NCBI GenBank assembly: GCA_017464085.1
Contig: JAFUEE010000104.1
Location: 16,226-80,225 of the forward strand
Source: Pseudomonadota bacterium
Lineage (GTDB): Bacteria; Myxococcota_A; Bradymonadia; UBA4248
Direction: 5' to 3'
DNA length: 64,000 bases
A model generated the notes under the pieces. It searched no databases. It was not told the DNA's origin and was given only the letters and a program-made list of their open reading frames with translations. Below are positions 273 through 22,711 of the stretch, one piece after another. Position 1 is the first letter of the stretch. The number at the start of each line of letters is the position of its first letter. The position numbers and the translations under genes were made by a program.

Positions 273-3191
273 TTACCAGTTGCTCTGTAGGAAGCTGACA
301 ATATTTTTGTATGTAGAAACAGAATAATGCAGGCCGTCAGAGGTCTCGAAGCCGTTGTCTTTCATATAGCTGTAGAGATCGATGACACGCGCGCCTTCGA
401 CGCTGGCGATCTTGTTGTTGAAGTCGACAATCTGTGATTCGGTGACTTTATAACCTTTTTCTTTTGCTTTTGCTTCGTTGATGGGGCCGACATTGACGAT
501 GGTGAGCGAGATGCCGGAATTCATGAGGTCAGTGTATTTTTTGATATAGCTTTCGGCATTGCCGAGGTCGTTGACGCCAAGCAGGATGACATAACTGGTG
601 AGACCAGATTGTTTGGCCTGCGGGAGAGCGTTATTGACTAGCCAGGAATAGCCTTTTCCGACTTCGGCGATGATCTGTCCGGCGGAGAGTCCGCCAAAAG
701 CCTGGAGGCCGACGGTACGGCTGTCGCCGATGACGACGAGTTTGCTTGGATCGGTCGCTGGTTTTTCTTCAGAATTCTGAGCGGGCGCTTCGTTTGCCTG
801 AGCCTGAGCGGGTTCTGCAGAGGCGACAGTGCTTGTGGCTGCCGCAGCGGGTGTGGCGTTGACATCTTCAAAAGTGGCCGCGAGTGCGCCGACACGTTTC
901 AGATTGCTCCGTTCATTGGTGAGCGCCCAGTTGCGCCAGCCCTGCTGGAGGTTGGAAGCGGAGCCTTCTGTATCGGAGAACATGGCGCGGCCCATGCCTG
1001 AATATTTGAACGCATCGCCATAAGCTTTTGGGGCATCGTCGATGGCCGCTTCGAATTCCTTGCGTCTGAGGGAATCCCAGCCGCCGTACATGCCGCAGAT
1101 ATCTTTGTAGTAGAGTTTGAGCCTGGAGACCAGCGTCGTGTAAGCTGCAGATGAATAATTGTCGCCCCAGATGCGAGCGGCTTCCTGTTTGATCCATGTT
1201 TCAGGCATGAGAGCGTCAAACATGTCAGTCGCTTGACCTTGACCATCATAGTATCTGGCATACGAATTTTCTGTGGCGTGTCCGGCGGTTTCATGACCAT
1301 AGACGCGAGCTTCGTCGCCTAGGGATTCGGCCATGGATTTGGCAAAGTTTTCTTCGCCTTTTGCAGTGTTGCATGCATAGAGCTGAACACGGACATCGCC
1401 GCGCAGGGAGCCGCGAATCTCATTGACAAAAGCGTCCACGCTTTGAGAGCCCAGGCTTCCGCGCGGGAAGTTCAGAGAATCCTGCGAGCCGTGATAATAG
1501 AGGCTGAGGTTTTTGATCTTGAGGTGTTCTGGTTCCGCTTCGGCTGATTCGGGTTTGGATTGCGCATATCTGTCGTGCAGGTTTTTATAGACGGTGTTTG
1601 TGAGATTTTTGGCGGCATCAGAAGAGTTCGCCATCATGGCGCTGCCCAGGCTCAGCGCGGTATCGACGGTTTTCGTGGATTTGGCGACACCAGTCGCGAG
1701 GTTGGCAAACTCACGGTTGTTGTTGTTATTATTGTACCCAGCATTGCCGTAGCTGTCTTTTTGTGTGCCGCCATAGAGGGATACCGTGATGCCATTGGGA
1801 TGTGCTTTCTGGATTTCGTTGACTGTATTGTCAGATGTCTCGACATAGCCGGAGGCTTTGGGCTTGTTGTCTGCGACAGGTTCCGGATCGTTTGCGAGCG
1901 AGTTCCCGGCAGGTTCGTTTCCAGCAACGGCAGGTTCATTTCCAGCAGGTTCATTTCCAGCAGGTGTTTCGACTGGAGCCGAGATAAGGGGGGATATTGC
2001 AGGCGCAGCGGGTTCTTGCTGGACTGGCTGTTCAGTTTTGGGTTTGGCAGTGATATTGCCATAGGTTTGGAAGTAAATCTTCGCGACGCCGCCGCGCAAT
2101 CTGCCCATGGCTTCCATGTTGTCCGGCTTTTCAAAATTGACGCACCATTTGTAGGCGGCGTCATATGCGCCCTGCTCGGTGTTTGGCGCGTTTTTCATGG
2201 CATTGAGCACGCCGGTATAGCCTTCAGAGAGCTCGCTTGCCAGGAATTCGAGCTGGCCGGGAATGGAGTTGAGGTCATAGCCGTGAGTCTCGCAGAAATC
2301 GATGAGATTTTGCATTCTGTTGTCGTGCCACTGGCAGAGGCCGTAACTCGTGCCGTTGTCGCCGACGCATGTCGTATCGAAGTTGGATTCGCTCTGGATG
2401 TTGGCCAGAACGCCGCAAGCGCCTGCATTGCTCATGCCGAGGTTTGAGACGATATATGAGAAGATCGAATTCTTGTTTGCAAATACCGCTCTTGGCTTGT
2501 CCAGATCGATATCCGCTCTCCGGTTTGTAATGAGGTCGTCGATTTCGACGGAGTAGATGGATCTGGCAAACTGATAAGGATTGTTCGAATTTGAATAGAA
2601 GTAATTGATGAGATCCTGATTGGTTGTAAAGTCGGGATGTTCTTCCAGGAGTTGCTCAAGCGGGCTCTTCGTGGGCAGGTCGAGTTCGCCTTCAGGGGCG
2701 TTTGATTGCGCGGGCGCGTTTGCTGGGGCGTTGTTTGATTGCGCGGGCGCTTCAGCCGGGGCGTTGTTTGCCTGAGCCGGCGCTTCAGCCGGGGCGTTGT
2801 TTGCCTGAGCTGGCGCTTCAGCCGGGGCGTTGTTTGCCTGAGCCGGCGCTTGCACGGGGGCATCTGCGGTCGCATTGTTGGCCTGGGCGGAATCGTTGAG
2901 TCTGGGGATGTTGAGCATGTCACCCGGATGGATGACAGATTTCGGGGTCATGCCGTTGTATTCGGCGAGGAACTTGTAACCGCCTGGGACGTTGAACTTT
3001 TCGGCGATGGCCCAGAAGCTGTCGCCTGTTTTTACCTTATAGACCTCTGCAGTGACGTACTGCGGGGCATTTTGGGTCATCTGTTCGTCTTTTGCTGAAG
3101 CTTTTGAGGCATTTGCAGAAGCCTGCTGCGCGCCCTGATTGGACACATCCGCTTCGGCTGCTCGCTGGGTCTTGACTGATACGGCTGGCAT
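273..3191 (-). CDS. Multidomain peptidoglycan-targeting protein: N-terminal LysM, 11-aa tandem repeats, phage-tail-type lysozyme-like domain, unknown central region, C-terminal SGNH/GDSL hydrolase; no signal peptide
   Basis: Long ORF with a GGAGG RBS 5 nt before the ATG at 3191, so the protein starts MPAVSV. A LysM-like segment (YKVKTGDSFWAIAEKF...HPGDMLNIP) is followed by NNAPAEAPAQA repeats. The motif ANIQSESNFD...GLCQW resembles the phage tail lysozyme family. The C-terminus has a GDS block (VVIGDSRT), GVNDL, and a DGLHYS-like SGNH signature. Confidence 0.75.
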   Translation of the reverse strand: MPAVSVKTQRAAEADVSNQGAQQASANASKASAKDEQMTQNAPQYVTAEVYKVKTGDSFWAIAEKFNVPGGYKFLAEYNGMTPKSVIHPGDMLNIPRLNDSAQANNATADAPVQAPAQANNAPAEAPAQANNAPAEAPAQANNAPAEAPAQSNNAPANAPAQSNAPEGELDLPTKSPLEQLLEEHPDFTTNQDLINYFYSNSNNPYQFARSIYSVEIDDLITNRRADIDLDKPRAVFANKNSIFSYIVSNLGMSNAGACGVLANIQSESNFDTTCVGDNGTSYGLCQWHDNRMQNLIDFCETHGYDLNSIPGQLEFLASELSEGYTGVLNAMKNAPNTEQGAYDAAYKWCVNFEKPDNMEAMGRLRGGVAKIYFQTYGNITAKPKTEQPVQQEPAAPAISPLISAPVETPAGNEPAGNEPAVAGNEPAGNSLANDPEPVADNKPKASGYVETSDNTVNEIQKAHPNGITVSLYGGTQKDSYGNAGYNNNNNNREFANLATGVAKSTKTVDTALSLGSAMMANSSDAAKNLTNTVYKNLHDRYAQSKPESAEAEPEHLKIKNLSLYYHGSQDSLNFPRGSLGSQSVDAFVNEIRGSLRGDVRVQLYACNTAKGEENFAKSMAESLGDEARVYGHETAGHATENSYARYYDGQGQATDMFDALMPETWIKQEAARIWGDNYSSAAYTTLVSRLKLYYKDICGMYGGWDSLRRKEFEAAIDDAPKAYGDAFKYSGMGRAMFSDTEGSASNLQQGWRNWALTNERSNLKRVGALAATFEDVNATPAAAATSTVASAEPAQAQANEAPAQNSEEKPATDPSKLVVIGDSRTVGLQAFGGLSAGQIIAEVGKGYSWLVNNALPQAKQSGLTSYVILLGVNDLGNAESYIKKYTDLMNSGISLTIVNVGPINEAKAKEKGYKVTESQIVDFNNKIASVEGARVIDLYSYMKDNGFETSDGLHYSVSTYKNIVSFLQSNW
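2701..2865 (-). repeat. In-frame 33-bp coding tandem repeat, about 5 copies, encoding NNAPAEAPAQA
   Basis: Direct repeats of gcgcttcagccggggcgttgtttgcctgagccg are visible in the sequence; the translation gives repeated NNAPAEAPAQA units. Confidence 0.85.
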
Positions 3192-3515
3192 AAAATCCTC
3201 CAAGGTTAAAGTTTAATCGAATCACTGTAAGCGCTACCATTATTTATTATACACAGAATGCGATTTGATGACCAAATAATTTTCATGAATGTCCTGAATT
3301 TATCGTGCGCTCTCTGCGATTAAAGATTTTGTTCTGAGCGCGAATTTTTGGGAGGGGGAAGACTCCCCCTGCGCGGCTATTTCTGCGAAATACGCCGCTA
3401 CCCCCTCGTCGAATCGCAAAGCGCCTTTTCACAATGTTGTGCGGTCAATTTTGTGATTTGCCATCTAATGCTATAAGAGACTTGCCAGGTGAACTTGTGT
3501 GAGAGGGAGGTGAAG
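3192..3515. promoter_or_regulatory. Divergent intergenic promoter region between the LysM-lysozyme gene (-) and the nucleotidyltransferase gene (+); contains REP-like element A1
   Basis: 324-bp non-coding gap between divergently oriented genes. It contains AT-richer stretches (ttgtgatttgccatctaatgctataag) upstream of the + gene. Confidence 0.35.
3352..3410 (+). repeat. REP-like palindromic element, subfamily A copy A1 (GGGGGAAGACTCCCCC-TGCGCGGC-TAT-hairpin-ATA-CGCCGC-TACCCCCTCG)
   Basis: Near-identical copies lie at 9051..9107 (inverted), 22851..22911, 50107..50162 and 4522..4608. The internal hairpin is tatttctgcgaaata. Confidence 0.8.
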
Positions 3516-4520
3516 ATGGCAAAGACAGGCGGTATTTTATTGTGCGCAGGTTTCGGGTCGCGTCTTGCGCCGCTGACGGAGGTCGTGCCCAAGCCGGCGA
3601 TCCCGTTCTGCGGCGTGCCGATGGCGCATTATGCGCGCGCGGCGCTGGAGCGGGCGGGCGTGGCTGAGATGGGGATGAACGTGCATCATCTGCCGGAGCG
3701 CATGATCGAGGCGATGGATGGCGGCCGCTGGATGGATCGCGCGCGGGAAATGCACATATCCCGAGAGGAAGGCGGTATATTGGGCACGGGCGGCGGTGCT
3801 GCAAGGCTCGCAGGGATGATGCCGGACTGCGACCGTTTTGTGATCTATCACGGGGACGTGCTCTGCGGCGCGGACATTTCTGAGGCGCTTGAATCACATA
3901 TTGCGTCGGGCGCGAAAGTGTCGCTCGTCGTGCTTCCGCGTCCGGAAGCGGTCAGGGAGAACGTCAGGCAGTCGCTCGGCATGATCGGCGTCGTGGATCA
4001 TGAGATCGTCTGTATCCGGGACTGGTATAAAAATGACTGTATCATCGAGTTTTCCCCGCGCTGTTTTAGCGGGATACATATTGTGGAGCGCGGCGTGCTG
4101 GAGGCGATCGCGGATCGGGGCAGCGTCTGTCTGGTGACCGAGGTTTACCGGGAGATGCTTGACCGGGGGGAGGCAATCCACGCCTGCGAGCCGTCCGGTG
4201 CTGTATATTTTGCGGATGTGGGAACGCCGGCAACTTATCTGTCGGCACAGCGCGCGTGCCTGAGAAGCCGTGAATATGGCGACGGTCCGGGGCTGCCTGT
4301 CTTGTGCGAAGGAAAGACGCTGTATGACCGCGGGGACCCGAGCGTATCATTCGGCGCGGTGAATATCGGCGATCAAGTCAGGATAGAGGGCAATGTATGC
4401 CTCAACCCGGGGGCGTCAGTTTCAGGCGATGTGTCCTTGCAGGATGAGATGGTGTGCGCGGAAGGCGGCATCAAGCCGGACGGCGCCTGGATATGCGGTG
4501 GAGCGGCACGTGCGCGATGA
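3516..4520 (+). CDS. Sugar-1-phosphate nucleotidyltransferase (NTP-transferase domain plus C-terminal left-handed beta-helix)
   Basis: RBS GGGAGG 5 nt upstream of ATG 3516. The N-terminal motif GGILLCAGFGSRLAPLT is a variant of G-x-G-x-R-L. The C-terminus has hexapeptide-like repeats (VRIEGNVCLNPGASVSGDVSL). Confidence 0.8.
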   Translation: MAKTGGILLCAGFGSRLAPLTEVVPKPAIPFCGVPMAHYARAALERAGVAEMGMNVHHLPERMIEAMDGGRWMDRAREMHISREEGGILGTGGGAARLAGMMPDCDRFVIYHGDVLCGADISEALESHIASGAKVSLVVLPRPEAVRENVRQSLGMIGVVDHEIVCIRDWYKNDCIIEFSPRCFSGIHIVERGVLEAIADRGSVCLVTEVYREMLDRGEAIHACEPSGAVYFADVGTPATYLSAQRACLRSREYGDGPGLPVLCEGKTLYDRGDPSVSFGAVNIGDQVRIEGNVCLNPGASVSGDVSLQDEMVCAEGGIKPDGAWICGGAARAR

Positions 4521-5558: not shown

Positions 5559-8015
5559 TCAATTCTGGAGACAGGAAGAGGAGCGCTGCATGTCTTCGTC
5601 CTGCTGAATGATGTCGCGGATGCGGTCTGAGGCGCTCTGTCCGTCGAAGTCCCAAGGGAGTTCGTAGAAGGTGTCGGGTTTGCTGGCGGGATCATAGAAG
5701 TCGAGGTCGCCGGTCCATCGGACGGAGATCATGCCTCTGTAATCGTCGTAAGCGTAGTCAGGCGCGGTGCTCCAGCGTCTGCTGGCCTTGAACTGTGCGC
5801 CGACGCGGACGCCTGCCCAGGCAGGTGACCAGATCTGGAATGCGCCACGCGCAGTCGTGTCGCGCCGGAGGTCGCCGGATGTGAAATAATTCTGTGATTT
5901 TCCGTAATCGTCGTAGGATGCGGCGCCGCTGAGACGAAAAAGGATGTCGCGTTTGGGGATGCGGTAGTCGAGCGCGAGGCTGATGTTCGCGCCGTTGAGG
6001 TCGTACATGTCGCCGACGGAGAACCAGTGCCGGTAGGAAGCGCCCCAGGTGAGCGAGAGCCCTGCATAAAGGCTGTGCCTGCCGCCTGCGCCGATGTCGA
6101 GCTCATCCCTTGTGCGCACGCGTTGCCGAAAGGTCCTGTGGCCGTATCCGGCGAAGATATAGAGCCATTTGTGGATTTCCAGGTCAGCTTCGAGCCTGTG
6201 GCTTGTATAGAACATCAGGGGGCCGTTGTCGTATTTGTCATTTCCGAAGATGTAGAGCATTTCGGGGCGGTAGTAGGCGCCGAACTTGACTGGATCGAGC
6301 TGGAGGACGGTCCCGAGCCGCATAGATGTGTCGAGATAGCTGGAATCGGCGGCGTCTTTAGAGGTGAGCAGCTGTCCGGTGATCTGTCCTTCGAGGACAA
6401 TGCGCGCGAAAGCGGGGCTCCATGGATCGAGCCCGATGCGGAGATCGCCGTCCAGGAAGGGGCTTCCGAGAGATTTGTTCGTGAGCCTGGGATCGCTTGG
6501 GGAGCCGCTGAGCGCATTGGATGCATAGCCGCCGTCGATTTCGGCTTTCCAGGTAAAATTTGGGTCAGCGGAGAGGCCGTTGATCGAGCGCAGTGATTTG
6601 AGCGCCTGTTTGTCAGCGCGTGAAAGCTCGGGGGAAGCGTAGGCATTCTGGAGATGCCCGAGCGCGCTGTCTTTGTCGCTGCGCGCCATGTCGTTGAATG
6701 CGCGGACGAGCTCATGTTTGGCGGAATCTTTTGGCTGTTCGCACTGTGCGCCGTCGAGGATTCTGTCGGCTTCTTCGGGCATGGCCATCTGGATATAGGT
6801 CCATGCAGCCCATGCGCGCGTTTCGCAGTCTTGAGGATTCTGAGTGAGGAGCGCATTGAACGTTCTGAGCGCCCATGGATAGTTTTGCGCGCGCGCGTAT
6901 GCGATGCCGAGGGCGCGTTCGATTTCCGGGGAGCCGTCGCGGTTTTCCTTGAGGAGATCGACCGCGTCGCGCTGGAGGTCTGGGGAGTTCCAGAGCATCT
7001 GTGCTTCTTCGAGGGTCTGTAATCGTGCGGCCTCGAGCGCTTCAGGATCAGCGAGATTGAGCGAAGCGTCGGTCATGGTGTCGGTATCGCCATTGAGTTC
7101 CCATGCGAGCAGGATTTCGGAGCCGTCAAATATTCGGTCCTGCGGTGAGGCGTCCGTCTCAGGGAGGTTCTGGGACACGGGGACTTCCTCGATGAATTCG
7201 CCATCGCTGCAGCATCTGAAGCCGAGCGTGAGCGGCGTCCAGTTCATCGGGATATAGGTGCACTTGTGGTTGCCTTTGGTATCCGCGCAGTTGAACGCGC
7301 CGCCGCGGACTGTCATGCCGCTTCCGTTTGCGGTGTGTTCCCAGATGTTGCCGCTCAGGTCATAGACATCCCATGCGTTGACGCAGTCTTTGAAAGAGCC
7401 TGTGGGCATGAGGTGGAAGCCGTATCTGCCGTAAGTTTCGATGCCGTTGCAGGTCTGCGGATCATATTCATTTCCGTAAACATAGTCATAATTCTGTTCT
7501 CCGCGGCATGCATATTCCCATTCGGAGGGGGCGCATAGGCGTTTTCCAGCGGCATTGCAAGCGGCTTCAGCCGCGCTGTTGTTGTCTCCGATGTTCCAGG
7601 GCATGACGTTCGGGCGTGAGGTGGCGACGGAGCTGTCTGAGCCTGCGGAAGTCTCGGTCGCATCGGGCCGTGAGGCTTCATATTTGTCGATGCAGTAGGT
7701 GTCAGAGATTGCGGCCATGTCGTCCGGGCATGTGAAGACTTTGACGGGCGGTTTGGGATCTGGATTCGGATCAGGGTCGGGGTTCGGATCCGGTTCGGGT
7801 TTCGGATTGGGGTCGATGGTGCAGATGTGCGCCTGGCAGATGAAGTTTTTGCCGCAGTCTTGATCGATGATGCACCTGTACTGGCATTCGCCGAGTTCAT
7901 CGCAGAACATGGGGCTGATGCAGTCCTCATCGCGGTAACATCTCTGTTCGGGGCTGCAGGAAGCGAGCGTGGCAGCGCATAGTGTCAGGCTTATCAGATA
8001 GGGTGTCTTTGACAT
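5559..8015 (-). CDS. Lipoprotein with Cys-rich knot, PDPNPDP linker, FGE-sulfatase (SUMF1-like) domain, TPR-like helical region and a beta-strand-rich C-terminal domain
   Basis: Lipobox LASCS after a signal peptide. FGE hallmark segments are GNEYDPQTCNG, VYDLSGNIWEHT and RGGAFNC. The C-terminal 350 aa are rich in alternating aromatic, Gly, Arg and Asp residues, typical of a beta-barrel or beta-sandwich. Confidence 0.8.
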   Translation of the reverse strand: MSKTPYLISLTLCAATLASCSPEQRCYRDEDCISPMFCDELGECQYRCIIDQDCGKNFICQAHICTIDPNPKPEPDPNPDPDPNPDPKPPVKVFTCPDDMAAISDTYCIDKYEASRPDATETSAGSDSSVATSRPNVMPWNIGDNNSAAEAACNAAGKRLCAPSEWEYACRGEQNYDYVYGNEYDPQTCNGIETYGRYGFHLMPTGSFKDCVNAWDVYDLSGNIWEHTANGSGMTVRGGAFNCADTKGNHKCTYIPMNWTPLTLGFRCCSDGEFIEEVPVSQNLPETDASPQDRIFDGSEILLAWELNGDTDTMTDASLNLADPEALEAARLQTLEEAQMLWNSPDLQRDAVDLLKENRDGSPEIERALGIAYARAQNYPWALRTFNALLTQNPQDCETRAWAAWTYIQMAMPEEADRILDGAQCEQPKDSAKHELVRAFNDMARSDKDSALGHLQNAYASPELSRADKQALKSLRSINGLSADPNFTWKAEIDGGYASNALSGSPSDPRLTNKSLGSPFLDGDLRIGLDPWSPAFARIVLEGQITGQLLTSKDAADSSYLDTSMRLGTVLQLDPVKFGAYYRPEMLYIFGNDKYDNGPLMFYTSHRLEADLEIHKWLYIFAGYGHRTFRQRVRTRDELDIGAGGRHSLYAGLSLTWGASYRHWFSVGDMYDLNGANISLALDYRIPKRDILFRLSGAASYDDYGKSQNYFTSGDLRRDTTARGAFQIWSPAWAGVRVGAQFKASRRWSTAPDYAYDDYRGMISVRWTGDLDFYDPASKPDTFYELPWDFDGQSASDRIRDIIQQDEDMQRSSSCLQN

Positions 8016-8903: not shown

Positions 8904-9314
8904 AGCGAAATTCCTGGAATTTTAATGATATGCATAGCTCTGAAAGCGTATCCAGAGCAGACCGGTTTTATTCCAAACAGGTATATGATTCAAGCATTCG
9001 CGCGCGGCATCCTGGACTATTGTGTGAGGTTTTATGAAATATGAAACGTCGAGGGGGTAGCGGCGTATTTCGCAGAAATAGCCGCGCAGGGGGAGTCTTC
9101 CCCCCCCATACAAAAAAGAAAAGTTATCAAGCGTAACCCGTGAAGGGCCGGCCGGAGCGAGTTTAAGTCCGTGAGATAAGGCGCTTGTGCGTGCAAGAAA
9201 ACTGAATGTTGTGAGTCGGTATGGGGCAATAAAAAATTGTTCGCTCTTGAATTATGATGGTTTGCGAGTAAAAGGGTGAGACGGAGTGCTGTTTATGGGC
9301 TGTCAGGAGGTGTT
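8904..9314. promoter_or_regulatory. Divergent promoter region between pdxK (-) and the Cys-rich lipoprotein gene (+); contains REP-like element A3
   Basis: 411-bp non-coding gap with AT-rich segments (ttgaattatgatggtttgcgagtaaaag). An AGGAGG RBS sits at 9305..9310. Confidence 0.35.
9051..9107 (-). repeat. REP-like element subfamily A copy A3 (reverse orientation)
   Basis: gagggggtagcggcgtatttcgcagaaatagccgcgcagggggagtcttccccc is the exact reverse complement of the A1 core. Confidence 0.85.
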
Positions 9315-12300
9315 ATGCGACGGTTGGGATTATGTCTTGCGTGTTGTTTGGTCTTGAATGCCTGTTCGGAAGCGGAGCTGACATGCGCGGATAATACCCG
9401 TAAATGTACGGATGACCATCAAGGAATCCTTCGTTGCGTGGGCGGTGCCTGGGAATGGGCGGAGATGTGCTATAATGACACCGTGTGCGATGACAACAAG
9501 TTTATCTGTGTCCAGGATCCGGATGCGTGCGTGGAAGGGGCGCGCAGATGTTCGAACGACCTGCGGAGGGTGGAAGTCTGCATGGGTGGCAGCTGGGCTC
9601 AGGAACGTGAGTGTTCCGGGACTGAATATTGCGATTCGAACCAGCTCGCGTGCATCACGCCTACGAGCGCTCCGGCTTGTGTCCCGGGAAGTTTTCAGTG
9701 TGTCAACAATGTGATCATGCGCTGCGAGGGCATGGGATGGTCACAGTTTCAGACATGCGCATCGCCTCTGAGGTGCGATGCAGCGAGCGGGACTTGCGTG
9801 AGGGATCAGGAATGCTCTCCGGGTACGAAAAAATGCGATGAGGATCTGAGCCGCACGCTGGTGTGCGCGGATGGCTTCTGGACGCTCGGTCAGTCGTGCG
9901 ATGGCGGGCAATGCGACCAGGCGACGATCGAATGCGCCGTGGGATGTACAGAAGGGGATAAAAAGTGCAGCCCGGGGAAAGACAGCGTGCTCAAGTGCAG
10001 CGGCAATCAGTGGATTTCTGAACAGGCATGCGGCGCTTCGGCATATTGCAATGACCAGAAAGCAGCCTGCGTGGATTTGCCGGTCTGTGTCGAGCACTCG
10101 GCATCCTGCGACCTGAGCGGCGGAAGCGTGAAGGAATGCATCGATGGCAAGTGGCAGACGACGCCATGCACGTCAGGCAGGACGTGCGTGAACGGCAAAT
10201 GCATCGCGACCCTGACGAATGTATGCACGCTCGGGGTCACGGAATGCAAGGACAACAATATCGTCCGATGCGTCGGGGGCATCCCGGAGACGTCGTCGTG
10301 CGGCGATCAGGTCTGCATGGTCAGGGGCGGCAAAGCCGTATGTGAATCACATGTGTGCGATGACGGGGATTCGGCATGTGTATCCGCGACCAGGAAAAAG
10401 ACATGCGAGCAGAACGAATGGCGCGAGATTTCGTGCGGGAGCGGCTACCAGTGTGATGCCGGAAATGGGGAATGTGTCCTGACCGTGTGTACGGAAGGTG
10501 CGATGCGCTGTTCGAACAACGCTGCCGAGAAATGCGTCAATAATGCCTGGCAGGTCGTCAAGGCGTGCGGCTCGGACAACTGCGAGGTCAAGGGCGGGGT
10601 GGCGTCGTGCCAGACAGTCTCTTCGTGCCAGGCGGGGGCTAAGAAATGCAATGGCAATGTCGTGGAGACTTGTTCCGGCAATAAATACACGCAGAGCCAG
10701 GTGTGTGACAGCGCCACGCAGATCTGCAGCGCTTCGGGGACGAACGCTTCGTGTGTGGCGCGTGTCTGTACGGAAGGCGCGTACAAATGCGAAGGTTCGG
10801 CGCTGAAATTCTGCAAGGACAATGTGTGGGTGACCTCGCAGACGTGCTCGGGGGACAAGCCTCTGTGCGATGCGTCCAAGTCGGCCTGCGTGGCCAGGGT
10901 GTGCGAAGAAGGCGCGTTGAAGTGCAGCGGGACGGGCAAGAGCCTGATGGTCTGCAAGGGCAATGCCTGGAAGACGCAGACGGAGTGCTACAAGTCGGGC
11001 AGCACCTGTGTGGTCCGCGCCGGCAAGGCCGCCTGTGAGGCAAAGGTGTGCACGGATGGCGTGACCTGCACGGGCAATACGCTCCGAGTCTGCAGCGGCA
11101 ATGCCTATATCGTCGAGAATGCATGCCTGAACACGGAGACCTGCAGCGTGGAAAGCGCGTCCTGTGAAGCCAATCCCGAATGCGCGTCCGGGGAATATAA
11201 GTGCGAGGGCTCGACACTGTATATGTGCTCTCCGGCGCGTCAGTGGCAGTCGAAGAATACATGCGTGAGCCCGGAAATCTGCGACGCGTCGTCCAAAAAA
11301 TGCGTCGATACGTCGGTGTGCTCGGCCGGAAGCTATTACTGTGACGGCCAGGTGCTCAAAAAGTGTTCGGGCGGCCAGTGGGCGACCGAAGAGACTTGCG
11401 ATATCACATATAGTTGTAATGCGGACAAGAAGGCATGCGTCCTCAAGCCTGTCTGTACGGATGGCGAATACTCGTGCAATGGCAAGACGCCGAGGACTTG
11501 CCAGGGGGGCCAGTGGAAAGACGGCAATCCGTGTTCGGCATCGCAGACATGCAGCGCGTCGCTCAAAAAATGTGTCGAATGCGATGAAAATGATTTCCAG
11601 TGCAGCGGCCAGACGCTTCAGAAATGCGTCTCCGGTGCCTGGGTCACTCATGAAAATTGCTCGTCCGGGCAGACATGCAATGCCAATCTGGAGATGTGTG
11701 TCGAGTGCAGCGGTGACATCAGCCAGTGCAGCGGCCAGACACTGCTGTCGTGCGTGGATTACCACTGGAAGACCGAAAAGGAGTGCGACAATGCCAGTTA
11801 TTGCGATGCATCTCAGAAGAAATGCATCAAGAAAGACGTGTGCACAAATGGCGAATATGCATGCGTGAACAACAGCCTCAATATCTGTACCAATGGCCAG
11901 TGGCAGGAAAAAGAGTCATGCACGGCGGAGATGAATTGTGATGCAAACGCAAGGAAATGCGTGCTCAAGCCCGTCTGCATGCAAGGGGAGGCTGTGTGTG
12001 ACGGCAACAGCCTGAAGACATGTGATGCATCGGGGCAGTGGGCGGTCAATGACTGCGGCATGGATGCGCTCTGCGTGACCGCGAATGCGTCGGCGCAGTG
12101 TGTGTCCAAGATGACGCTGCCCACGTGGTGCAACACGCAGCATGTCAGGGATGACCGCGACCAGGGGTATGGGCGCGTGCTTCTGCCAGACGGCGTCAAG
12201 CCCGAAGATATTTCCGCGCATTTCGTGTGCGGCGATGTGCAGCATCCGGTCAGTTCCTGGACATACGGCAGTGCGGCTGTATATAACAAGGATTGCGATG

Positions 12301-12959
12301 ACTGCGGCAACAACATCGAGTTCATGAGTTATTCGGTGTCGGCGCCTGCGGGCACATATCGCTGCGCGTTTACGTTCGATTTTGGGCCTCAGACCATCGC
12401 CTGCCCGGCGAACAATGATGGGAATGATGCGATTGCGCCGATCGTCTTGAGCGATTCGACACAGCTGACATCCGCTCAGACGAAGGAGATTACAGTCCTT
12501 GCGCCGTCAGAAGATGCGCCGACATGGTGTTATTTCAAGCATTTTGATGAGCCTGGCCAGAATGGATTCCAGGGCACCTGGCGGGCATACGGCAGGATTC
12601 TTCCGCCTGGCCTTGCGACGCCTGCGCAGATCACAGCCCGTCTGATCTGTGGAGCTTCCGATGTGCCTGCAGCGAACTGGACCGTCATGCGCGAAGCGGA
12701 GCAGAATTTGTTCTGCCCTGGTAATGGCTATGAGGCTTGTGGCGCTAACAATCTGGAGTATATGAGCGCGCCTCTGATCGACAATGCGCATATTTTGGAG
12801 CCTGGCAGTTACAGCTGCGCGTTCCGCTTTGATGTTGGCGGCAAGTCTTATGTCTGCTCGACTTATCGCGATGCCTCGAATACAGGCGGGCAGCCGGTTT
12901 TGCTTGTGCCGGGGAAAATTCTCACAAGTGCGGAATCTTGGGGGATCACTGTTCAGTAA
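9315..12959 (+). CDS. Cysteine-rich repeat lipoprotein: about 20 tandem 40-45-aa six-Cys modules followed by a duplicated ~150-aa C-terminal domain
   Basis: AGGAGG RBS lies 4 nt before ATG 9315. Signal and lipobox are LVLNACS. A module of the form C-x-EG-x-x-KC-x-G-x-x-L-x-x-C-x-x-x-x-W-x6-C-x6-C-x5-6-C repeats throughout. The C-terminus has two copies of a domain beginning PTWC. Confidence 0.8.
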   Translation: MRRLGLCLACCLVLNACSEAELTCADNTRKCTDDHQGILRCVGGAWEWAEMCYNDTVCDDNKFICVQDPDACVEGARRCSNDLRRVEVCMGGSWAQERECSGTEYCDSNQLACITPTSAPACVPGSFQCVNNVIMRCEGMGWSQFQTCASPLRCDAASGTCVRDQECSPGTKKCDEDLSRTLVCADGFWTLGQSCDGGQCDQATIECAVGCTEGDKKCSPGKDSVLKCSGNQWISEQACGASAYCNDQKAACVDLPVCVEHSASCDLSGGSVKECIDGKWQTTPCTSGRTCVNGKCIATLTNVCTLGVTECKDNNIVRCVGGIPETSSCGDQVCMVRGGKAVCESHVCDDGDSACVSATRKKTCEQNEWREISCGSGYQCDAGNGECVLTVCTEGAMRCSNNAAEKCVNNAWQVVKACGSDNCEVKGGVASCQTVSSCQAGAKKCNGNVVETCSGNKYTQSQVCDSATQICSASGTNASCVARVCTEGAYKCEGSALKFCKDNVWVTSQTCSGDKPLCDASKSACVARVCEEGALKCSGTGKSLMVCKGNAWKTQTECYKSGSTCVVRAGKAACEAKVCTDGVTCTGNTLRVCSGNAYIVENACLNTETCSVESASCEANPECASGEYKCEGSTLYMCSPARQWQSKNTCVSPEICDASSKKCVDTSVCSAGSYYCDGQVLKKCSGGQWATEETCDITYSCNADKKACVLKPVCTDGEYSCNGKTPRTCQGGQWKDGNPCSASQTCSASLKKCVECDENDFQCSGQTLQKCVSGAWVTHENCSSGQTCNANLEMCVECSGDISQCSGQTLLSCVDYHWKTEKECDNASYCDASQKKCIKKDVCTNGEYACVNNSLNICTNGQWQEKESCTAEMNCDANARKCVLKPVCMQGEAVCDGNSLKTCDASGQWAVNDCGMDALCVTANASAQCVSKMTLPTWCNTQHVRDDRDQGYGRVLLPDGVKPEDISAHFVCGDVQHPVSSWTYGSAAVYNKDCDDCGNNIEFMSYSVSAPAGTYRCAFTFDFGPQTIACPANNDGNDAIAPIVLSDSTQLTSAQTKEITVLAPSEDAPTWCYFKHFDEPGQNGFQGTWRAYGRILPPGLATPAQITARLICGASDVPAANWTVMREAEQNLFCPGNGYEACGANNLEYMSAPLIDNAHILEPGSYSCAFRFDVGGKSYVCSTYRDASNTGGQPVLLVPGKILTSAESWGITVQ

Positions 12960-16588: not shown

Positions 16589-19500
16589 TCATTCTCCGCC
16601 AGGCTTCTGCTCCTCAGGCTTCTGCTCCTCAGGCTTCTGCTCCTCAGGTTTCTGATCATCTTTCTTATCATCATTGTTTTGGGCTTTGTCGATGCCATAG
16701 ACCTTGATGTTGTCGAGACGCATCATCTTATAGCCTTCGTCGGTGGCGTTCGTGTCTTCAATGCCCTTGTCGTTGACGATGATCGGCCAGATGTTGTTCT
16801 CTGCGACGGGATCGAGTGTGAGTTTGAGCCATTCGCCTTCCTTGGTGGCGTTCTTCTTATCGTTGATCACGATGGTGCGACCGTCGCCAAAGACGCTCAG
16901 TTCGATCTTGGTGATTTCGAATGCGTCGGTCTTTGTTGTCAGTGAGAAATGACATTTGTCTTTGCCGCCGACTGCGAGATCTGTGCCGAGCGCGCCTACG
17001 ACGCCGTCTTCGCCGGCGACGATCTTGAGCTTGGCGCTCTCGCAGCTGAAAACAAATTTGGCCGCAGCAGCATTCTTGGAGTCAGTGTCTGGCTTGATGT
17101 CAGCCTTGTCGATTGGTGAAGATTTCTTGGTATCCTTATTCCAATACTGATCGAATGTGCTCCAGGATGCGAGCAGTTCGGGGAGCGAGGTGGGCGTAGG
17201 CGCGGGTTTGTCGGTTTCATCCGTGCAGCCCTTGAGCTCTTTGTTCATCAGGCAGACGGGCGAATCGCATTTGCCTTTGCATGCAGTTTTGACCTGGGCT
17301 TCGAAGCATTTTGCGCTATCTTCGTCACTCAGCGGGGCTGACTGATCTACTGGCTTTTCGCAAATATTCACATCCCAGCTTTCGACGGCGGAGCCACCGG
17401 AGCAGACGACGATCGTGTCGTTGTCTTGGCAAGCTTTGTCTTTGCAATGCGTCAGGCATTCCTCGTTGGTCACGCCGTAGCCATTGTTGATGATTTCGGA
17501 GTTGAGGTCACACGTAGGATCGCCGCATGTCGTAAAGGCTTCGCAGTTTTTTTTGCATTCATTGTTGGCAGAAAGGATGATCTGCGTGGCTGTGGCGCCG
17601 GCGTATTCGGTATTGAATTTGCCTTCTTCTGTGCAGACAACGACGCCAGCCCCCTGGCAGCCTGTTTTGTCGCAACGGTTGTTTTTGGCCCAGCTTGAAG
17701 GATCGCTGAACGAACCGCCCAGACATGCCTGGTTAGTGTGATCTTTGATCTGCGCTCCTTCCTTGGCCTCTTTGAGGACCTTTCGGCAAACGCTGTTTTT
17801 GGCCTTGAATTCATCGAGTGATTTGCCGCCACTCAGTTCCATCGTCGGCTTGTCGTTTTCATCTTTATAAGCGATCCATGCGCCGCCGATGGTGTCTTCA
17901 GGTTTTTTGCCGTCGGCCTTGGTCTCTCCGAGAGAACCGGTGCCTGTCCAGCTGCCTTTGACGATCTGCTGCGCGACACAGCCAATGCCTGCGGCCGGGG
18001 CAACGCAGAGCTTGCCGCGCTGGAATTCGCCAGTGCCATCAAGCGTCAGGTTGAGAGACGCATATTTGCTGACTGCGAAGGAAACGGTCTGGCCGGAAAG
18101 CCAATTCAGGCTCAGCTCGCAGAACGTGGAGAGATCGACACTGCCAAGAAGCGGCAACGAGATATTGCCGAGCTTGGAGCAGTCGAGAATATTGGCAAAA
18201 CTGAGGTTGCCGCTGTCGTCGATTGCGCCGATGAATTTGCCGATGACCTGATAGATGAACTCCCCATAAGTGAGATTGAGCGAGAACTTGGTGATCGCAA
18301 GCTGATCGATGCCGTTCGTGAGCTTGGCTTCGGTCCATTTGCCTTCGACGATATTGCCCGGAAGCTCGAGTTTCTTGTCGCCGGTAAACGGAATAAGGGC
18401 ACCGTTATATTTGGCACTGCCTTTAAACTTGCCGGAGTTGCCGTCTTTCTCGAGGGTGAGGTCGCCAGTGAGTGTCAGGTACTGAACGCTGTCGAACACT
18501 TTGCAGAGCTGTTCGGCGATGGCATCCGCGCTGAGGTATTTGTCGAGCAAGGATTTGATGCCCTTTCTGGCCAGCGGCGCGATCTTTTTGCCGATGCTGT
18601 TGATGTGCGTGTAATAATAGAACTTGGCACAGGTGCAGTCGCACTTCGTGTAAAGCTTTTTAAGGCAATCTTTGTCTTCTTTGCCTTTATCATCGAAACA
18701 ATCTTTGTATTTCTGGCCGGAGTTGATCTCGCAGATGCTTTCAAGTTTCGAGACATTGCTGCCATCGGACGGCATACATTTGTTTTTCTTCTGGGAATTT
18801 TCGACACATTTAGTTGTATTGGTATTGTCGCCATCAAAGAAAACATAAGTATCGAGCTCCTCCATGACTTTTTTGGCCGGATCGGCATCGAGGAATTCCT
18901 CGTATTTCGTCATGATCTTGTCGATGCTCTCTTTGACTTTTGAGCCGTCTTTCATCAGAGGCCCGAGGTCGAAGAGGGATTCGGTCTTGTAGCTTTCAGC
19001 AAAGCTGAGCGGGATTTCGGAGAGAAGCACTTTGACATCCATGCGGCGAACTGGCGCGCATTTGCACTTGCCGTCTTTGTCTTTCTGGCTGTTCTTGCAT
19101 GTCGTCAGTCGTTCCGAGTCGTCGCAGGTATTCGGCGTCGTCGGAGAGCCGAAGCGGTTCATGGCGCTGCAGCCGAACACGAGCGGGGAACTGCCGGAAT
19201 CACCAACGGCAAACACGATGTACTTGTCTTTGTGGTTATCGAGGATCAGCTCTTTGGGATAATATTTATTATCGCCTGCTTCTGTCACTTTTTCGAGATC
19301 GCAGATATGGAGCGAATCTTGGGGCTCTGCTTTCAGGCAGTTTGTTTTTCGCGAAGATTCGTTTGCGACGAGGAAGTTCTCGCTGCAGCTGTGATCATCG
19401 GAGGACAGGATGTAATAGCTGACGCCGTTGTAAGCGAGTTTCTGCACGTTCGTGCCGTCGGCTTCGAGCTTGATATGGTTGATTTCCGTGACAGAGGGCG

Positions 19501-22500
19501 TAGGCGGCATATCCTTGACGACAATCTGAATCGTCTCAGGGATCATATTGCCCTCATCGTTGTGGATATTCGGGTACATGACGCTGAGATTGTACGTCGT
19601 CTGCTTCGATCCGGATTTGAAAATGATCGTGGCGATGCCGTTTCTGTCGGTCGGTGATGTCTCGGCATTGAGGGAAGCATCCGCGCCGTCATTGCCTTTG
19701 AGTTTCCAGATGAGCTTGTCGCGGACAGGCGTAATTTCATTGCCATTCTTCCAGACGATCTTGGCTTGGTAATTGATCGTTTCGCCAAGTCCCACGTTTT
19801 CCTGAGGGGAGAGGAAGATAAGGCTCAGGCAGCCCTGTTTGCCTTGCGGACCGGAGGTGTTGAACGCTTCTTTGCAGCATGCCTCCGCAGAATTCTCATC
19901 ACAGTTCTTGAATGTGTTGTCGGAGCATGTGGCGCTGCAAGCGCTTCCCTGATGATATTTGGGGTTGGTGCTGTAACCGTTTACAGTATCGAGGTACTCT
20001 CCGGCGCAGCTCTTGTAGGTTTTGTCGTTCGCATTGCAGGTTTCTGCTTTGCTGCTCGTGGTGCAGGGCTCGACGCATTTTTCCCCATCGAGCTTGGTGC
20101 AGCAGAAATCGCCGTTTTCATTTGTCGTATCGCCATCTGGCAGGTCGACATCGTTGGGGTTGACGCCCGGTATTGTGCCGGTATTGTTCGTGATGGTGAT
20201 CGTGAAGATGAACGGAATGGGTTTCTTTGTCTCTTCATCGATATAATTGGGATGGAAGACACTGACATAATAGAGCGAATTATATCCGGTGCCCGTATAG
20301 AAATAATTGCTTGCAACGCCCTTGGAGTTTGTCACGATCATCGTGTCGTTGAGCGTGGCATTGTTGTTGACGGACTTGCCGCGTGAAATTTTCCAATAAG
20401 TTTTGGTGTCGGCAACGAGCGTCTTGTACTGGTTGTCTTTGATGACTTTGACCTTGAGGTCAAGCGTCTTGACGACCGGTGCGCTGAGGATTTGCTCGAA
20501 CGCGCTGACGTCGTCGGGGAGGACGAGCTTGACATTGCCGAGGTTCGGATCGTAATTCGGCATGCCTCCGGGCGGGATGAGCGCGTCATCTTTATTGGCC
20601 TTGTCGCCTTCGGCAGTAGGCACGCTGAAAGAATTGTTCACAGCGATGACGATCGTGGCTGCTTTTGCATCCTTGTTGACCAGCGTGATCATGTAGGTCG
20701 CATCATAAGCGGTGCCCGCCCAGAACGTGAACTTGGTGTCTTTATTGGCATCGCTGCTCGTGCTGAAGGTGATCTCCGTGTCGGTGTTGCCTTCGGCATC
20801 AAAGGCGCCGTTATTGGAGGGCAGGGAGCCTTTCGTCAGCTTGGCTGTGACATCGAGCGCCTTGAGCTTGCTCGTATCGTTTTTTGAAACGGCGCGCACA
20901 AAAATATCCTGTGTCGTGCTGATGCCGATCGAGAGCTTCTTGCAGGAGCCGTATTCATCCTTTTTGTCATATTTGCATCTGAAGATATAGTCACTGCCGC
21001 AAACTTCATAAAGGCAGGGATCCGGGGCGACATCGGAAGTGCCGTCGCCATCCACGTCAAAGCCGCCGTTATAGAATTCGCTCGAGCAGGAACATTCTCC
21101 GTCCTTCATGGCATCGCATTCGGCTTCCGACACTTTGTTGCCATTCTTGTCCTTGCATGTGACGACTTCGTTGATGACGACATGGATATCATCCGCAATG
21201 CCGTCGCCGTCCACATCCGCCTGAACTTTCTTGCCGTCGCAGGTTTTCAGATCCCACGTGCCGTTGTCGTTTTTCTCAAGCTTGCAGTGGAAGGCGGCAT
21301 TGGGGTCGCAGTCTTTGCCGCTCTGATTTTTGGCAGCATCAGACGTAAAGTCACCGCAGGCTTCGATGATCGATTTGACTGGTTCCGAGTCTTTGTCGAT
21401 CGGTTCGGGGAACATGCTGGCGAGAATCTGCGCGGCATTGCCGCCGTTGATCGTCTCTTTGCCTGTCTCCGAATCAGTCACGACGACATCGGGATCGGTG
21501 AGATCGACTGGGATCTTGATATCATCATTGATGATCACGGCCGGATCGCCCGGCTCTCCGAGCGTGTCGGGAAGCGCGAAGGTGTCGATCTGGTAGGTCA
21601 GGGGGTTGGCGACCTTATGGAAGAAATTGAGGAAATAACGGGCATTGTAAGCCATGCTCGTGTTGATTTCAACCCAGAATTCGCCATTTGCATTGGGATG
21701 GCCGCATGCCACGGCCTTGCCGGTCGCGCTGTCGCCATCCGCTTTATAAGGCTTCTGTCCGGAGGCGTTCTTTTCGCTGACTTCATCGTTGTCAAAGTAG
21801 GATGTGACAAAGCCTGTGTTCGTCGTTGTCGTTTCGACAAAGCTGAAACAGATGGTTTCCTTGGTAAGGTCGCAGGCTGTTTTGGCGTCGTCACCCGTTT
21901 CAGCGCCTGATGCGGCGCATTTGCCATCCAGGCGCACGCCGAGTTTTTTGCTGAAATCGGCATAGAGCTGCTGGTCAAGGCTGTCGAGGTTGACCAGGGC
22001 GGCTTCCGTCATCTTTGTCTCTGCATCGTTAATCTCGCTTGGCACGGTCAGGTCATTTTCGACATCTTTTGTGCCGAGCGTGCAGTCGCTCATTTTGGGA
22101 ATCGTCCGGACATTGATCTCTGCAGAAGCTGGATCGCTGGCATCCGCTGCCCAGAAGTTCAGATAATACATCGGGTTCTTTGAGCTGTACATCGAACCTG
22201 TCTGTACGCGTACAGTGAACGAGCCCTTCTGAACGCCTTTGGGCTTGGAAATGACGGCCATCGAGTCTGTCGGCGGAAACTCCTCTGCATCATAGAGGTC
22301 GCCGGAATCGACGATCAGGCTGCCGTTTGCGCCAGGGGCGCGCTCAAGCGTGATGACGAAGCGAGGCTCTTTCGAGGCGCCCGTCAGCATGCCGTCAAAA
22401 CTGACCTTGAACTCGACCATCTCGTTGATGTGGGCCGTTTCGGACTCGGGAGCGACGGAAAGCTCAAGTTCTTCAAAAACTCCGGAAGGGCCAAGCTCGG

Positions 22501-22711
22501 CCTTGCCCGGCTTGGATTTGGGATTGCTCGACAAGCCATCGCTTTCTACACCGAAAACAAAGGCGTCATTAGTGTCTTTTGGCGCATAACTCGCCCCGTT
22601 GGCGTCGATCGATTCGCCGCGTCTGGAATGTATCTCCTCTGAGTTCGCACATCCAAACAGGGTTGCAAACCATAGGAATAACAATCCTTTGGTGAGTGTT
22701 GATCTTTTCAT
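16589..22711 (-). CDS. Giant cell-surface lipoprotein (~2040 aa) with Cys-rich regions, thrombospondin-type-3-like Ca-binding motifs and a KPEEQ-repeat C-terminal tail
   Basis: AGGAGA RBS 6 nt before ATG 22711. Signal and lipobox are LFGCANS. DVDGDGIADD and DVDGDGTSDV are Ca-binding loops. A 15-bp repeat lies at the 3' end. Confidence 0.85.
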   Translation of the reverse strand: MKRSTLTKGLLFLWFATLFGCANSEEIHSRRGESIDANGASYAPKDTNDAFVFGVESDGLSSNPKSKPGKAELGPSGVFEELELSVAPESETAHINEMVEFKVSFDGMLTGASKEPRFVITLERAPGANGSLIVDSGDLYDAEEFPPTDSMAVISKPKGVQKGSFTVRVQTGSMYSSKNPMYYLNFWAADASDPASAEINVRTIPKMSDCTLGTKDVENDLTVPSEINDAETKMTEAALVNLDSLDQQLYADFSKKLGVRLDGKCAASGAETGDDAKTACDLTKETICFSFVETTTTNTGFVTSYFDNDEVSEKNASGQKPYKADGDSATGKAVACGHPNANGEFWVEINTSMAYNARYFLNFFHKVANPLTYQIDTFALPDTLGEPGDPAVIINDDIKIPVDLTDPDVVVTDSETGKETINGGNAAQILASMFPEPIDKDSEPVKSIIEACGDFTSDAAKNQSGKDCDPNAAFHCKLEKNDNGTWDLKTCDGKKVQADVDGDGIADDIHVVINEVVTCKDKNGNKVSEAECDAMKDGECSCSSEFYNGGFDVDGDGTSDVAPDPCLYEVCGSDYIFRCKYDKKDEYGSCKKLSIGISTTQDIFVRAVSKNDTSKLKALDVTAKLTKGSLPSNNGAFDAEGNTDTEITFSTSSDANKDTKFTFWAGTAYDATYMITLVNKDAKAATIVIAVNNSFSVPTAEGDKANKDDALIPPGGMPNYDPNLGNVKLVLPDDVSAFEQILSAPVVKTLDLKVKVIKDNQYKTLVADTKTYWKISRGKSVNNNATLNDTMIVTNSKGVASNYFYTGTGYNSLYYVSVFHPNYIDEETKKPIPFIFTITITNNTGTIPGVNPNDVDLPDGDTTNENGDFCCTKLDGEKCVEPCTTSSKAETCNANDKTYKSCAGEYLDTVNGYSTNPKYHQGSACSATCSDNTFKNCDENSAEACCKEAFNTSGPQGKQGCLSLIFLSPQENVGLGETINYQAKIVWKNGNEITPVRDKLIWKLKGNDGADASLNAETSPTDRNGIATIIFKSGSKQTTYNLSVMYPNIHNDEGNMIPETIQIVVKDMPPTPSVTEINHIKLEADGTNVQKLAYNGVSYYILSSDDHSCSENFLVANESSRKTNCLKAEPQDSLHICDLEKVTEAGDNKYYPKELILDNHKDKYIVFAVGDSGSSPLVFGCSAMNRFGSPTTPNTCDDSERLTTCKNSQKDKDGKCKCAPVRRMDVKVLLSEIPLSFAESYKTESLFDLGPLMKDGSKVKESIDKIMTKYEEFLDADPAKKVMEELDTYVFFDGDNTNTTKCVENSQKKNKCMPSDGSNVSKLESICEINSGQKYKDCFDDKGKEDKDCLKKLYTKCDCTCAKFYYYTHINSIGKKIAPLARKGIKSLLDKYLSADAIAEQLCKVFDSVQYLTLTGDLTLEKDGNSGKFKGSAKYNGALIPFTGDKKLELPGNIVEGKWTEAKLTNGIDQLAITKFSLNLTYGEFIYQVIGKFIGAIDDSGNLSFANILDCSKLGNISLPLLGSVDLSTFCELSLNWLSGQTVSFAVSKYASLNLTLDGTGEFQRGKLCVAPAAGIGCVAQQIVKGSWTGTGSLGETKADGKKPEDTIGGAWIAYKDENDKPTMELSGGKSLDEFKAKNSVCRKVLKEAKEGAQIKDHTNQACLGGSFSDPSSWAKNNRCDKTGCQGAGVVVCTEEGKFNTEYAGATATQIILSANNECKKNCEAFTTCGDPTCDLNSEIINNGYGVTNEECLTHCKDKACQDNDTIVVCSGGSAVESWDVNICEKPVDQSAPLSDEDSAKCFEAQVKTACKGKCDSPVCLMNKELKGCTDETDKPAPTPTSLPELLASWSTFDQYWNKDTKKSSPIDKADIKPDTDSKNAAAAKFVFSCESAKLKIVAGEDGVVGALGTDLAVGGKDKCHFSLTTKTDAFEITKIELSVFGDGRTIVINDKKNATKEGEWLKLTLDPVAENNIWPIIVNDKGIEDTNATDEGYKMMRLDNIKVYGIDKAQNNDDKKDDQKPEEQKPEEQKPEEQKPGGE
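16592..16650 (-). repeat. 15-bp in-frame tandem repeat x4 (KPEEQ) at the 3' end of the giant lipoprotein gene
   Basis: caggcttctgctcct is repeated 4 times. Confidence 0.8.

Follow-up and report, generated by a model that had tools for sequence, protein, structure and literature searches.

A signal-less, module-swapping protein family of gut Myxococcota built around a conserved domain of predicted clan CD cysteine-peptidase fold

Within a 64,000-nucleotide stretch of contig JAFUEE010000104.1 (hereafter the window), open reading frame (ORF) analysis revealed a real gene, a single frame of 972 codons plus stop on the minus strand (273-3191, with the ATG at 3191 and the stop codon at 273-275). 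Its product is identical to NCBI entry MBQ9243124.1, which comes from a metagenome-assembled genome (MAG) labelled Proteobacteria/Pseudomonadota and bears as its sole annotation 'LysM peptidoglycan-binding domain-containing protein'. At the centre of this protein we found a conserved domain, predicted to adopt the fold of clan CD cysteine peptidases, which is the family-defining module; the LysM and SGNH modules that accompany it are optional, exchangeable accessories. We give roughly even chances to the reading that the gene encodes a signal-less modular effector, made in the cytoplasm, that destroys the peptidoglycan walls of other bacteria.

A conserved central domain with a predicted clan CD fold

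The central ~300 residues had been left unassigned in the initial annotation, made from the same DNA. They proved to belong to a folded, highly conserved domain of ~340 residues, assigned here to a clan CD (caspase/CPD/DUF4347-like) cysteine-peptidase fold with a helical C-terminal extension (residues 440-790, window positions 822-1874; this and all other features of the gene lie on the minus strand). No Pfam or NCBIfam model exists for it. An exhaustive profile search against 1.84 billion representative proteins returned 210 representatives with the domain at E<=1e-3, 81 of them at E<=1e-10, and a word-indexed search with the same profile added just three further proteins. Across these representatives, Cys607 (1371-1373) was present in 159/159, His567 (1491-1493) and Gly568 each in 152/153, His633 (1293-1295) in 154/156 and Asn642 (1266-1268) in 151/159.

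The AlphaFold2 model of the domain, built from a 23-sequence alignment (pLDDT 92.7, pTM 0.90), displayed a caspase-like alpha-beta fold with the His-Gly then Cys arrangement of clan CD. Both motifs were placed at C-terminal strand ends, His567-Gly568 after strand 120-130 and Cys607 after strand 157-166 (domain numbering). The closest structure to the model was that of Tce1, a DUF4347 protein (PDB 9qpe). By sequence, DUF4347 (PF14252) matched at E 8e-4 and 19.6 bits, under its cut-off of 24.6 bits, and at E<=1e-3 in only 5 of 85 distant homologues of the domain; Peptidase_C13 was likewise sub-threshold (E 0.03). Identity to Tce1 amounted to 15%, and Tce1 was not among the PDB profile matches at E<=10. 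The domain is moreover twice as long as Tce1, from which it differs by extra N-terminal elements, the large helical C-terminal extension and the invariant His633 and Asn642. It is therefore not DUF4347 by sequence, DUF4347/Tce1 being its nearest structural neighbour, and is best described as a new sequence family with a modelled clan CD cysteine-peptidase fold. The profile matches to ClpS and ETS domains in the PDB, all at E>=0.05, were rejected as chance.

Leader and central domain are constant in a family of gut Myxococcota

Seven full-length homologues, 46-100% identical, were found, exclusively in animal-gut Myxococcota MAGs, which are labelled Myxococcota, Myxococcales or 'Proteobacteria'. 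When the seven were aligned, two parts were constant in all of them, namely residues ~448-775 and an N-terminal stretch of ~45 residues that includes an invariant Q-M-T-Q box. In comparison, the LysM was present in four of the seven and the SGNH tail in five. Other family genes showed further arrangements. In L004, PG_binding_1, NlpC/P60 and Phage_lysozyme2 modules precede the central domain and its C-terminal extension; in L005 and L086 the order is PG_binding_1, a T6SS_VgrG3-like_C muramidase, LysM, central domain and Peptidase_M15_4; and in P0023 the leader is followed directly by the central domain, then by LysM, PG_binding_1 and Peptidase_M15_4. The L087 protein has two apparent LysM repeats, recognised by eye, and the central domain at its C-terminus; L088, whose match covers the same part of the query with equal identity, carries, by eye, a SleB-type 'LYAEARGE' motif. 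The family thus has a polymorphic, module-swapping architecture: its members keep the leader and the central domain, around which the wall hydrolases (lysozyme, VgrG3-type muramidase, NlpC/P60, SleB-type Hydrolase_2, M15 peptidase and SGNH) are exchanged. As the P0003 locus is syntenic, the gene is maintained vertically in the lineage.

Two side observations concern the neighbours of these genes. A conserved ORF of ~1000 codons with no Pfam or PDB match is found at L005:12747-15746 and L086:11674-14685 (60% identical), a few kb 3' of the family gene in the former and directly after it in the latter, both loci belonging to the VgrG3C/M15 sub-branch. The L005 family gene is directly preceded (399-3872) by a gene whose product, judged by eye, resembles a large type IIG/BREX PglX-like N6-adenine methyltransferase with an NPPY motif.

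The constant N-terminus is a polar leader (residues 1-48, 3048-3191) that ends in the Q-M-T-Q box and is kept even in members that lack LysM. Residues 1-35 have a Kyte-Doolittle sum of -21.9, 38% of the first 45 residues are S/T/N/Q, and the leader has zero net charge, no hydrophobic core and no aromatic residue among its first eight. The leaders of the whole family are similarly hydrophilic (36-51% S/T/N/Q) and without early aromatic residues. No Sec, Tat or lipoprotein signal was detected in the 972-residue protein, the maximal Kyte-Doolittle value being 0.48 (11-residue window, first 70 residues), and hydropathy gave no transmembrane-like segment over its full length. The earlier statement that the protein has no N-terminal signal peptide is hence borne out: the first 70 residues contain no hydrophobic core, and no cryptic Sec signal was found. 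The leader is a candidate signal for non-Sec export or loading. A search for other cargo with the leader alignment (48 residues, E<=10) gave no match and was uninformative, the query being too short against 5.8e9 sequences. In a six-frame scan of the window and L001-L005, motifs of the QMTQ type occurred on family genes only, with no second type of cargo.

Wall-directed modules and linkers

The LysM (residues 51-96, 2904-3041) scored 38.8 bits with PF01476 (E 9e-10; cut-off 20.9), and the Phage_lysozyme2 module (residues 239-375, 2067-2477), with its SYGLCQWH motif, 99.1 bits with PF18013 (E 3e-28; cut-off 28.2). Both exceed the gathering score, so that the LysM and the GLCQW-type phage lysozyme named in the initial annotation stand, as do its list of domains and its view of the protein as a tool-kit against cell walls. 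The best solved relative of the lysozyme module in a PDB search was the N-terminal lysozyme domain of phi29 gp13 (E 1.7e-3). Its Glu45, reportedly the catalytic residue, aligned with Glu268 (2388-2390) in the 'QSES' motif, invariant in the family and the putative catalytic residue here. The lysozyme is preceded by a conserved N-terminal extension (residues 170-238, 2478-2684; LPTxSPLEQLL...YSVEIDDL), recognised in the alignment without a database assignment and kept in every lysozyme-bearing family member, L004 included.

Beyond the Myxococcota family, the lysozyme module has its closest relatives (L006-L081) exclusively in gut Firmicutes (Lachnospiraceae, Oscillospiraceae, Marvinbryantia and Faecousia). 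They are 40-53% identical and fused to CHAP, NlpC/P60, SH3 or FN3. This suggests that the module was acquired horizontally within the gut niche.

Repetitive linkers flank the modules. Linker 1 (2700-2851) consists of 4.6 copies of a 33-bp tandem repeat encoding APAQANNAPAE (Tandem Repeats Finder score 206-219), and linker 2 (1907-1965) of short 15/21-bp repeats, found with the same program, encoding (A)GNEP units. Both are perfect or near-perfect repeats at the DNA level. Their copy number varies among homologues, so linker length probably changes by slippage.

The C-terminus is a compact SGNH hydrolase (residues 817-972, 276-743) with Ser824 (720-722), Asn874, Asp952 and His955. Blocks I (GDS), III (GxND) and V (DxxH) and the SGNH fold are all present, and the Ser-Asp-His set is intact. 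The earlier identification of an SGNH module with a GDS block therefore stands for the conserved blocks and the fold, but the match to Lipase_GDSL_2 (PF13472, residues 821-961; E 5e-4, 21 bits) falls below the 32.9-bit cut-off. Sequence profiles against the PDB reached at best E ~0.1. The nearest compact structural matches included the catalytic domain of the O-acetyltransferase OatA as well as esterases, and acetyl-xylan and sialate O-acetyl esterases matched as well as did the enzymes of peptidoglycan O-acetylation. Compared with the catalytic domains of the esterase Ape1 and the transferases OatA and PatB, the module had no significant sequence similarity, and generic esterases scored equally well against it, so that specificity is not fixed by structure. 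As its structural neighbours mix peptidoglycan O-acetyl enzymes, an acetyltransferase and unrelated esterases, a role as peptidoglycan O-acetyl esterase is plausible but putative.

Distant homologues are linked to contractile injection systems

Among the superfamily representatives, the central domain is mostly the C-terminal module of proteins of 400-650 residues, and a Sec-type hydrophobic core was absent in 152/156. The Pfam partners found in the 85 distant homologues were eCIS_core/DUF4157 (15), PG_binding_1 (15), SH3_3 (6), SH3_4 (3) and LysM (2), the first of these being the mark of extracellular contractile injection systems (eCIS). A second catalytic domain was found only twice, once Hydrolase_2, a match that was not traced to any one protein, and once Tlde1. 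Two long members of the superfamily are likewise eCIS_core fusions, and 12 homologues have an N-terminal LQRxxGN motif. Since fusions to wall-binding domains are frequent and bring no other enzyme, we infer that the central domain may be a warhead acting on the cell envelope. Toxins associated with eCIS typically have an N-terminal DUF4157 and a C-terminal toxin (PMC8213781).

In four of five distant metagenome loci, eCIS-type genes were found beside the homologue. The L090 locus comprises, in order, a WHD-AAA (Afp15-type) ATPase, an SLT protein, the homologue, an eCIS_core protein, a Pvc16_N terminator and a tail sheath. L093 has a CIS tape-measure protein, a fusion of eCIS_core with the homologue, an eCIS_core-nuclease toxin and an AAA ATPase, and in L092 and L094 a WHD-AAA (Afp15-type) ATPase adjoins the homologue. 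The SLT lytic-transglycosylase-domain gene of L090 (7969-9477) lies directly upstream of the homologue, so that in this operon a glycan-cutting enzyme is paired with the central domain as separate genes.

An Afp15/Pvc15-type ATPase adjoins three family genes

Among 41 proteins encoded near family genes, Pfam detected AAA in three and the WHD variant in two. When ATPases from the eCIS loci were used in tblastn, an Afp15/Pvc15-type ATPase was found directly upstream of the family gene, on the same strand, in L004, L087 and L088 (E down to 1e-140, 39% identity over 722 residues). In L004 the ATPase occupies 5573-7933 and the family gene begins at 8231; in L087 the ATPase (7-1620) overlaps the start of the family gene at 1611 by 10 nt. 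The protein is a classic-clade AAA+ unfoldase, for which a PDB search gave just generic Cdc48/p97-type AAA+ proteins.

In the Photorhabdus virulence cassette (PVC), Pvc15 is needed to recognise the N-terminal signal and load the cargo (PMC9054023, PMC11297309). The signals of eCIS cargo are described as 20-50 hydrophilic, disordered N-terminal residues without a conserved sequence (PMC9054023, PMC11297309). Taken with the features of the leader and the adjoining ATPase, the precedent of Pvc15 makes loading by leader plus Afp15-type ATPase the best-supported route of export for the family.

Start signals and surroundings of the gene

A Shine-Dalgarno sequence, GGAGG (3197-3201), was read 5 nt before the ATG, and a promoter-like site, TGGTCA-17 nt-TATAAT (3246-3274), lies ~55 nt 5' of it; the latter was found by a consensus scan with 10/12 matches and is a consensus match only. 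As for an alternative TTG start, in-frame stops are located just upstream.

The window is otherwise an ordinary housekeeping chromosome, with genes for an NTP-transferase, a DsbA-like protein, pyridoxal kinase, TPR giants, DnaB, PanC and RibA, together with M20 and M24 peptidases and an RND/OEP efflux pump, the last identifying the host as a diderm. No phage gene was found in the window. An adjacent immunity gene was not detected in the window, where no small neighbouring ORF qualifies as one, nor in L082 or the P0007 contig. Likewise, eCIS_core/DUF4157 was absent from the 972-residue protein (Pfam) and from the family loci (tblastn), and neither the protein nor the window contains PAAR, VgrG, MIX, Rhs or an adaptor (DUF4123, DUF1795, DUF2169).

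Several other genes of the window are of note. An 818-residue predicted lipoprotein (5559-8015, minus strand), with a Cys-rich N-terminus, an FGE-sulfatase-like domain, TPR and a beta-barrel-like C-terminus, is kept beside the effector locus in L001 and L082. Three very large ORFs encode 2054 (16589-22753, minus), 2525 (33451-41028, minus) and 1227 residues (9276-12959, plus); two of them have no Pfam match and one has scattered TPR only. An ALK/LTK glycine-rich domain (PF12810, E 6e-33), best known from animal receptor tyrosine kinases and unusual in a bacterium, forms the end of a 1174-residue protein (24400-27924, plus). Two GLUG-motif (PF07581) proteins adjoin each other (58658-62128 and 62499-63842, both minus). 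GC skew exceeded zero in almost all 2-kb bins and its cumulative value climbed steadily over the 64 kb, which places the window within a single replichore arm.

Discussion

In the mechanism that we propose for a wall-destroying effector, an Afp15/Pvc15-type AAA+ unfoldase would recognise the leader, and a phage-tail-like contractile particle (an eCIS or a related machine), whose genes would lie at another place in the genome, would take up the protein or accompany its export. LysM would then anchor the protein to the wall of the target, the SGNH module would strip the O-acetyl groups that block lysozyme, and the lysozyme would cut the glycan. The central cysteine peptidase would cleave a peptide component of this wall, in a wall-bound protein or in the stem peptide or cross-link. 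No immunity gene would be required, since Sec would never bring the protein into the periplasm of the producer. The route of export is inferred from relatives, as the 64 kb contain no injection-system, ATPase or immunity gene. Export by contact-dependent or contractile systems had already been suggested in the initial annotation, which proposed looking in the wider genome for T6SS (type VI secretion system) or eCIS loci and a cognate immunity gene. None of these was found within the window, but the contractile part of the idea draws genuine, if indirect, support from the eCIS linkage of distant homologues, from the Tce1 fold and from the ATPase at three family loci.

Several points weigh against this proposal. 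The catalytic roles of all modules, and with them any substrate of the central domain, are predictions from sequence or model. The nearest structural relative of that domain is Tce1, for which the 2026 publication demonstrated no substrate and which was non-toxic in E. coli and yeast (PMC13323088). No eCIS, T6SS, Afp15-type ATPase or DUF4157 gene is present in the window, and the same genes are absent from the closest syntenic loci (L001, L002, L082 and L084-L086). Where the ATPase does adjoin the family gene, in L004, L087 and L088, sheath, tube, terminator, tape-measure and eCIS_core were not detected in the 8-21 kb visible. Finally, the leader has no early aromatic residues of the kind described for eCIS signals, which it resembles in composition only.

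Among the other explanations, one would make the central domain a CPD-like self-processing protease that cuts the linkers, or the leader at the QMTQ box, and so frees the lysozyme and the esterase. We regard this as unlikely. It would fit the position of the domain between enzyme modules, with long repetitive linkers on both sides, and the invariant QMTQ box that closes the leader; Tce1 and Tce2 have, in addition, been assigned as CPD-like (PMC13323088). However, the match to Tce1 is much stronger than that to CPDs, and a conserved cleavage motif was not identified in the linkers. Furthermore, in the superfamily the domain is mostly the sole candidate catalytic module, behind a wall-binding or eCIS_core domain, with nothing to release.

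The protein could also act on its producer as an autolysin, reaching the wall by a holin-like route or through membrane damage, and serve to free eCIS particles or cell contents, in fratricide or in programmed lysis. Holin-dependent lysis typically employs wall hydrolases without a leader, and neither the missing immunity gene nor the SLT-domain gene beside the homologue in the eCIS operon of L090 would be out of place. Particles of eCIS are freed by lysis of the producer, to which some eCIS toxins may contribute (Geller et al., PMC8213781). Against this, no holin-like gene adjoins the gene, whose neighbours are housekeeping genes, and the nearest relatives of the lysozyme module are found in gut Firmicutes. 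The conserved leader, together with the paired AAA+ unfoldase at three loci, points to active loading rather than passive release, and the module swapping would be typical of weapons under diversifying selection. Autolysis of the producer is on this evidence quite improbable.

A T6SS effector carried on a VgrG/PAAR spike, instead of eCIS cargo, is very unlikely. The structure closest to the central domain is that of a cargo of the H3-T6SS, Tce1; family members contain a T6SS_VgrG3-like_C muramidase module, one distant homologue has a Tlde1 domain, and T6SSs exist in some Myxococcota. Nevertheless, no PAAR, VgrG, MIX, Rhs, adaptor or immunity gene is present in or beside the gene, a protein of 972 residues greatly exceeds what the Hcp lumen can hold, and every genomic linkage found is of the eCIS type (eCIS_core, CIS_TMP, Pvc16_N or Afp15-type ATPase).

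That the gene encodes a housekeeping wall-remodelling hydrolase, or is a prophage remnant, with its missing signal a start-site or annotation artefact, is barely credible: its syntenic chromosomal locus has housekeeping neighbours, and matches to PHROG tape-measure and endolysin families run through the lysozyme module, but the start is fixed by the Shine-Dalgarno sequence, the promoter-like site and the upstream stops, the polar N-terminus is kept in all homologues, and a phage origin was rejected on the absence of phage genes from the window and of the central domain from 50,697 phage genomes and IMG/VR.

Besides the SGNH enzymes treated above, the proposed effector can be compared with three known systems. 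In Pseudomonas aeruginosa, the Hcp3 tube of the H3-T6SS carries Tce1 (PA0256, DUF4347) and Tce2, two putative cysteine proteases that each have a His/Cys pair; the toxicity of Tce2 in yeast depends on its Cys (PMC13323088). The protein described here shares with them the clan CD/CPD-like alpha-beta fold as modelled, the His...Cys pair, the lack of a signal peptide and the absence of an adjacent immunity gene. Tce1 and Tce2 are cargo of a contractile machine, as the 972-residue protein would be under the proposed mechanism. Tce1, however, is a stand-alone cargo (190-310 residues) and the domain studied here is embedded in a multi-enzyme chain, with its linkage to eCIS genes and not to Hcp.

With the DUF4157 toxins of eCIS (PMC8213781, PMC11297309), the resemblance lies in the distant homologues, which fill the slot of the C-terminal toxin in eCIS operons, in the hydrophilic N-terminus without a Sec signal, in the frequent lack of an immunity gene and in the ATPase beside three family genes. 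The protein differs from these toxins in having no DUF4157 and no eCIS gene within 64 kb, in its own conserved leader of the QMTQ type and in the presence of several wall hydrolases in a single chain.

The third comparison is with gp13 of phi29 (PDB 3csr/3csq), to which, among solved proteins, the lysozyme is closest by sequence and whose catalytic Glu aligns with its own putative one. This phage protein reportedly combines glycan-cutting and peptide-cutting activities in one polypeptide to drill through a thick wall, a design principle that would be shared. As a component of the virion, gp13 pairs its lysozyme with an M23 metallopeptidase, in contrast to the clan CD cysteine-peptidase-like domain, SGNH and LysM partners found here, in a chromosomal gene that is not part of a prophage.

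Modular wall-degrading effectors and eCIS toxins are therefore kinds of protein already known. New here are the recognition that an uncatalogued domain of predicted clan CD fold is what stays constant at the core of a leaderless, module-swapping family of wall hydrolases from gut Myxococcota, the repeated fusion of this domain elsewhere to eCIS_core and wall-binding domains, and its pairing with an orphan Afp15-type ATPase. A literature search returned nothing specific on gut Myxococcota. To our knowledge, the payloads of antibacterial eCIS are largely unknown, and we know of none that attacks peptidoglycan by several activities in one chain.

Given its repeated fusions to eCIS_core and wall-binding domains, the central domain, absent from Pfam and present in ~210 representative clusters that are nearly all leaderless, makes a good candidate for an enzymatic warhead of a new kind. 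The wall-binding fusions also suggest that the target of Tce1 lies in the periplasm or the cell wall and not in the cytoplasm. A bolder reading, which we put forward only tentatively, is that the domain represents a new wall-directed class of clan CD cysteine peptidases or amidases and a widespread antibacterial warhead of eCIS, and that gut Myxococcota load multi-enzyme cargo by means of a leader and an orphan Afp15-type unfoldase for use against thick-walled gut Firmicutes. If so, it would provide the first defined class of substrate for the Tce1/DUF4347-like fold and would account for the harmlessness of Tce1 in the cytoplasm. The leader and the Afp15-type ATPase could constitute a compact, transferable loading tag. 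Should the members of the family, which is confined to uncultured gut Myxococcota, prove to be weapons directed at Gram-positive gut bacteria, they would offer a lead for the biology of predators and prey in the gut and for modular lysins.

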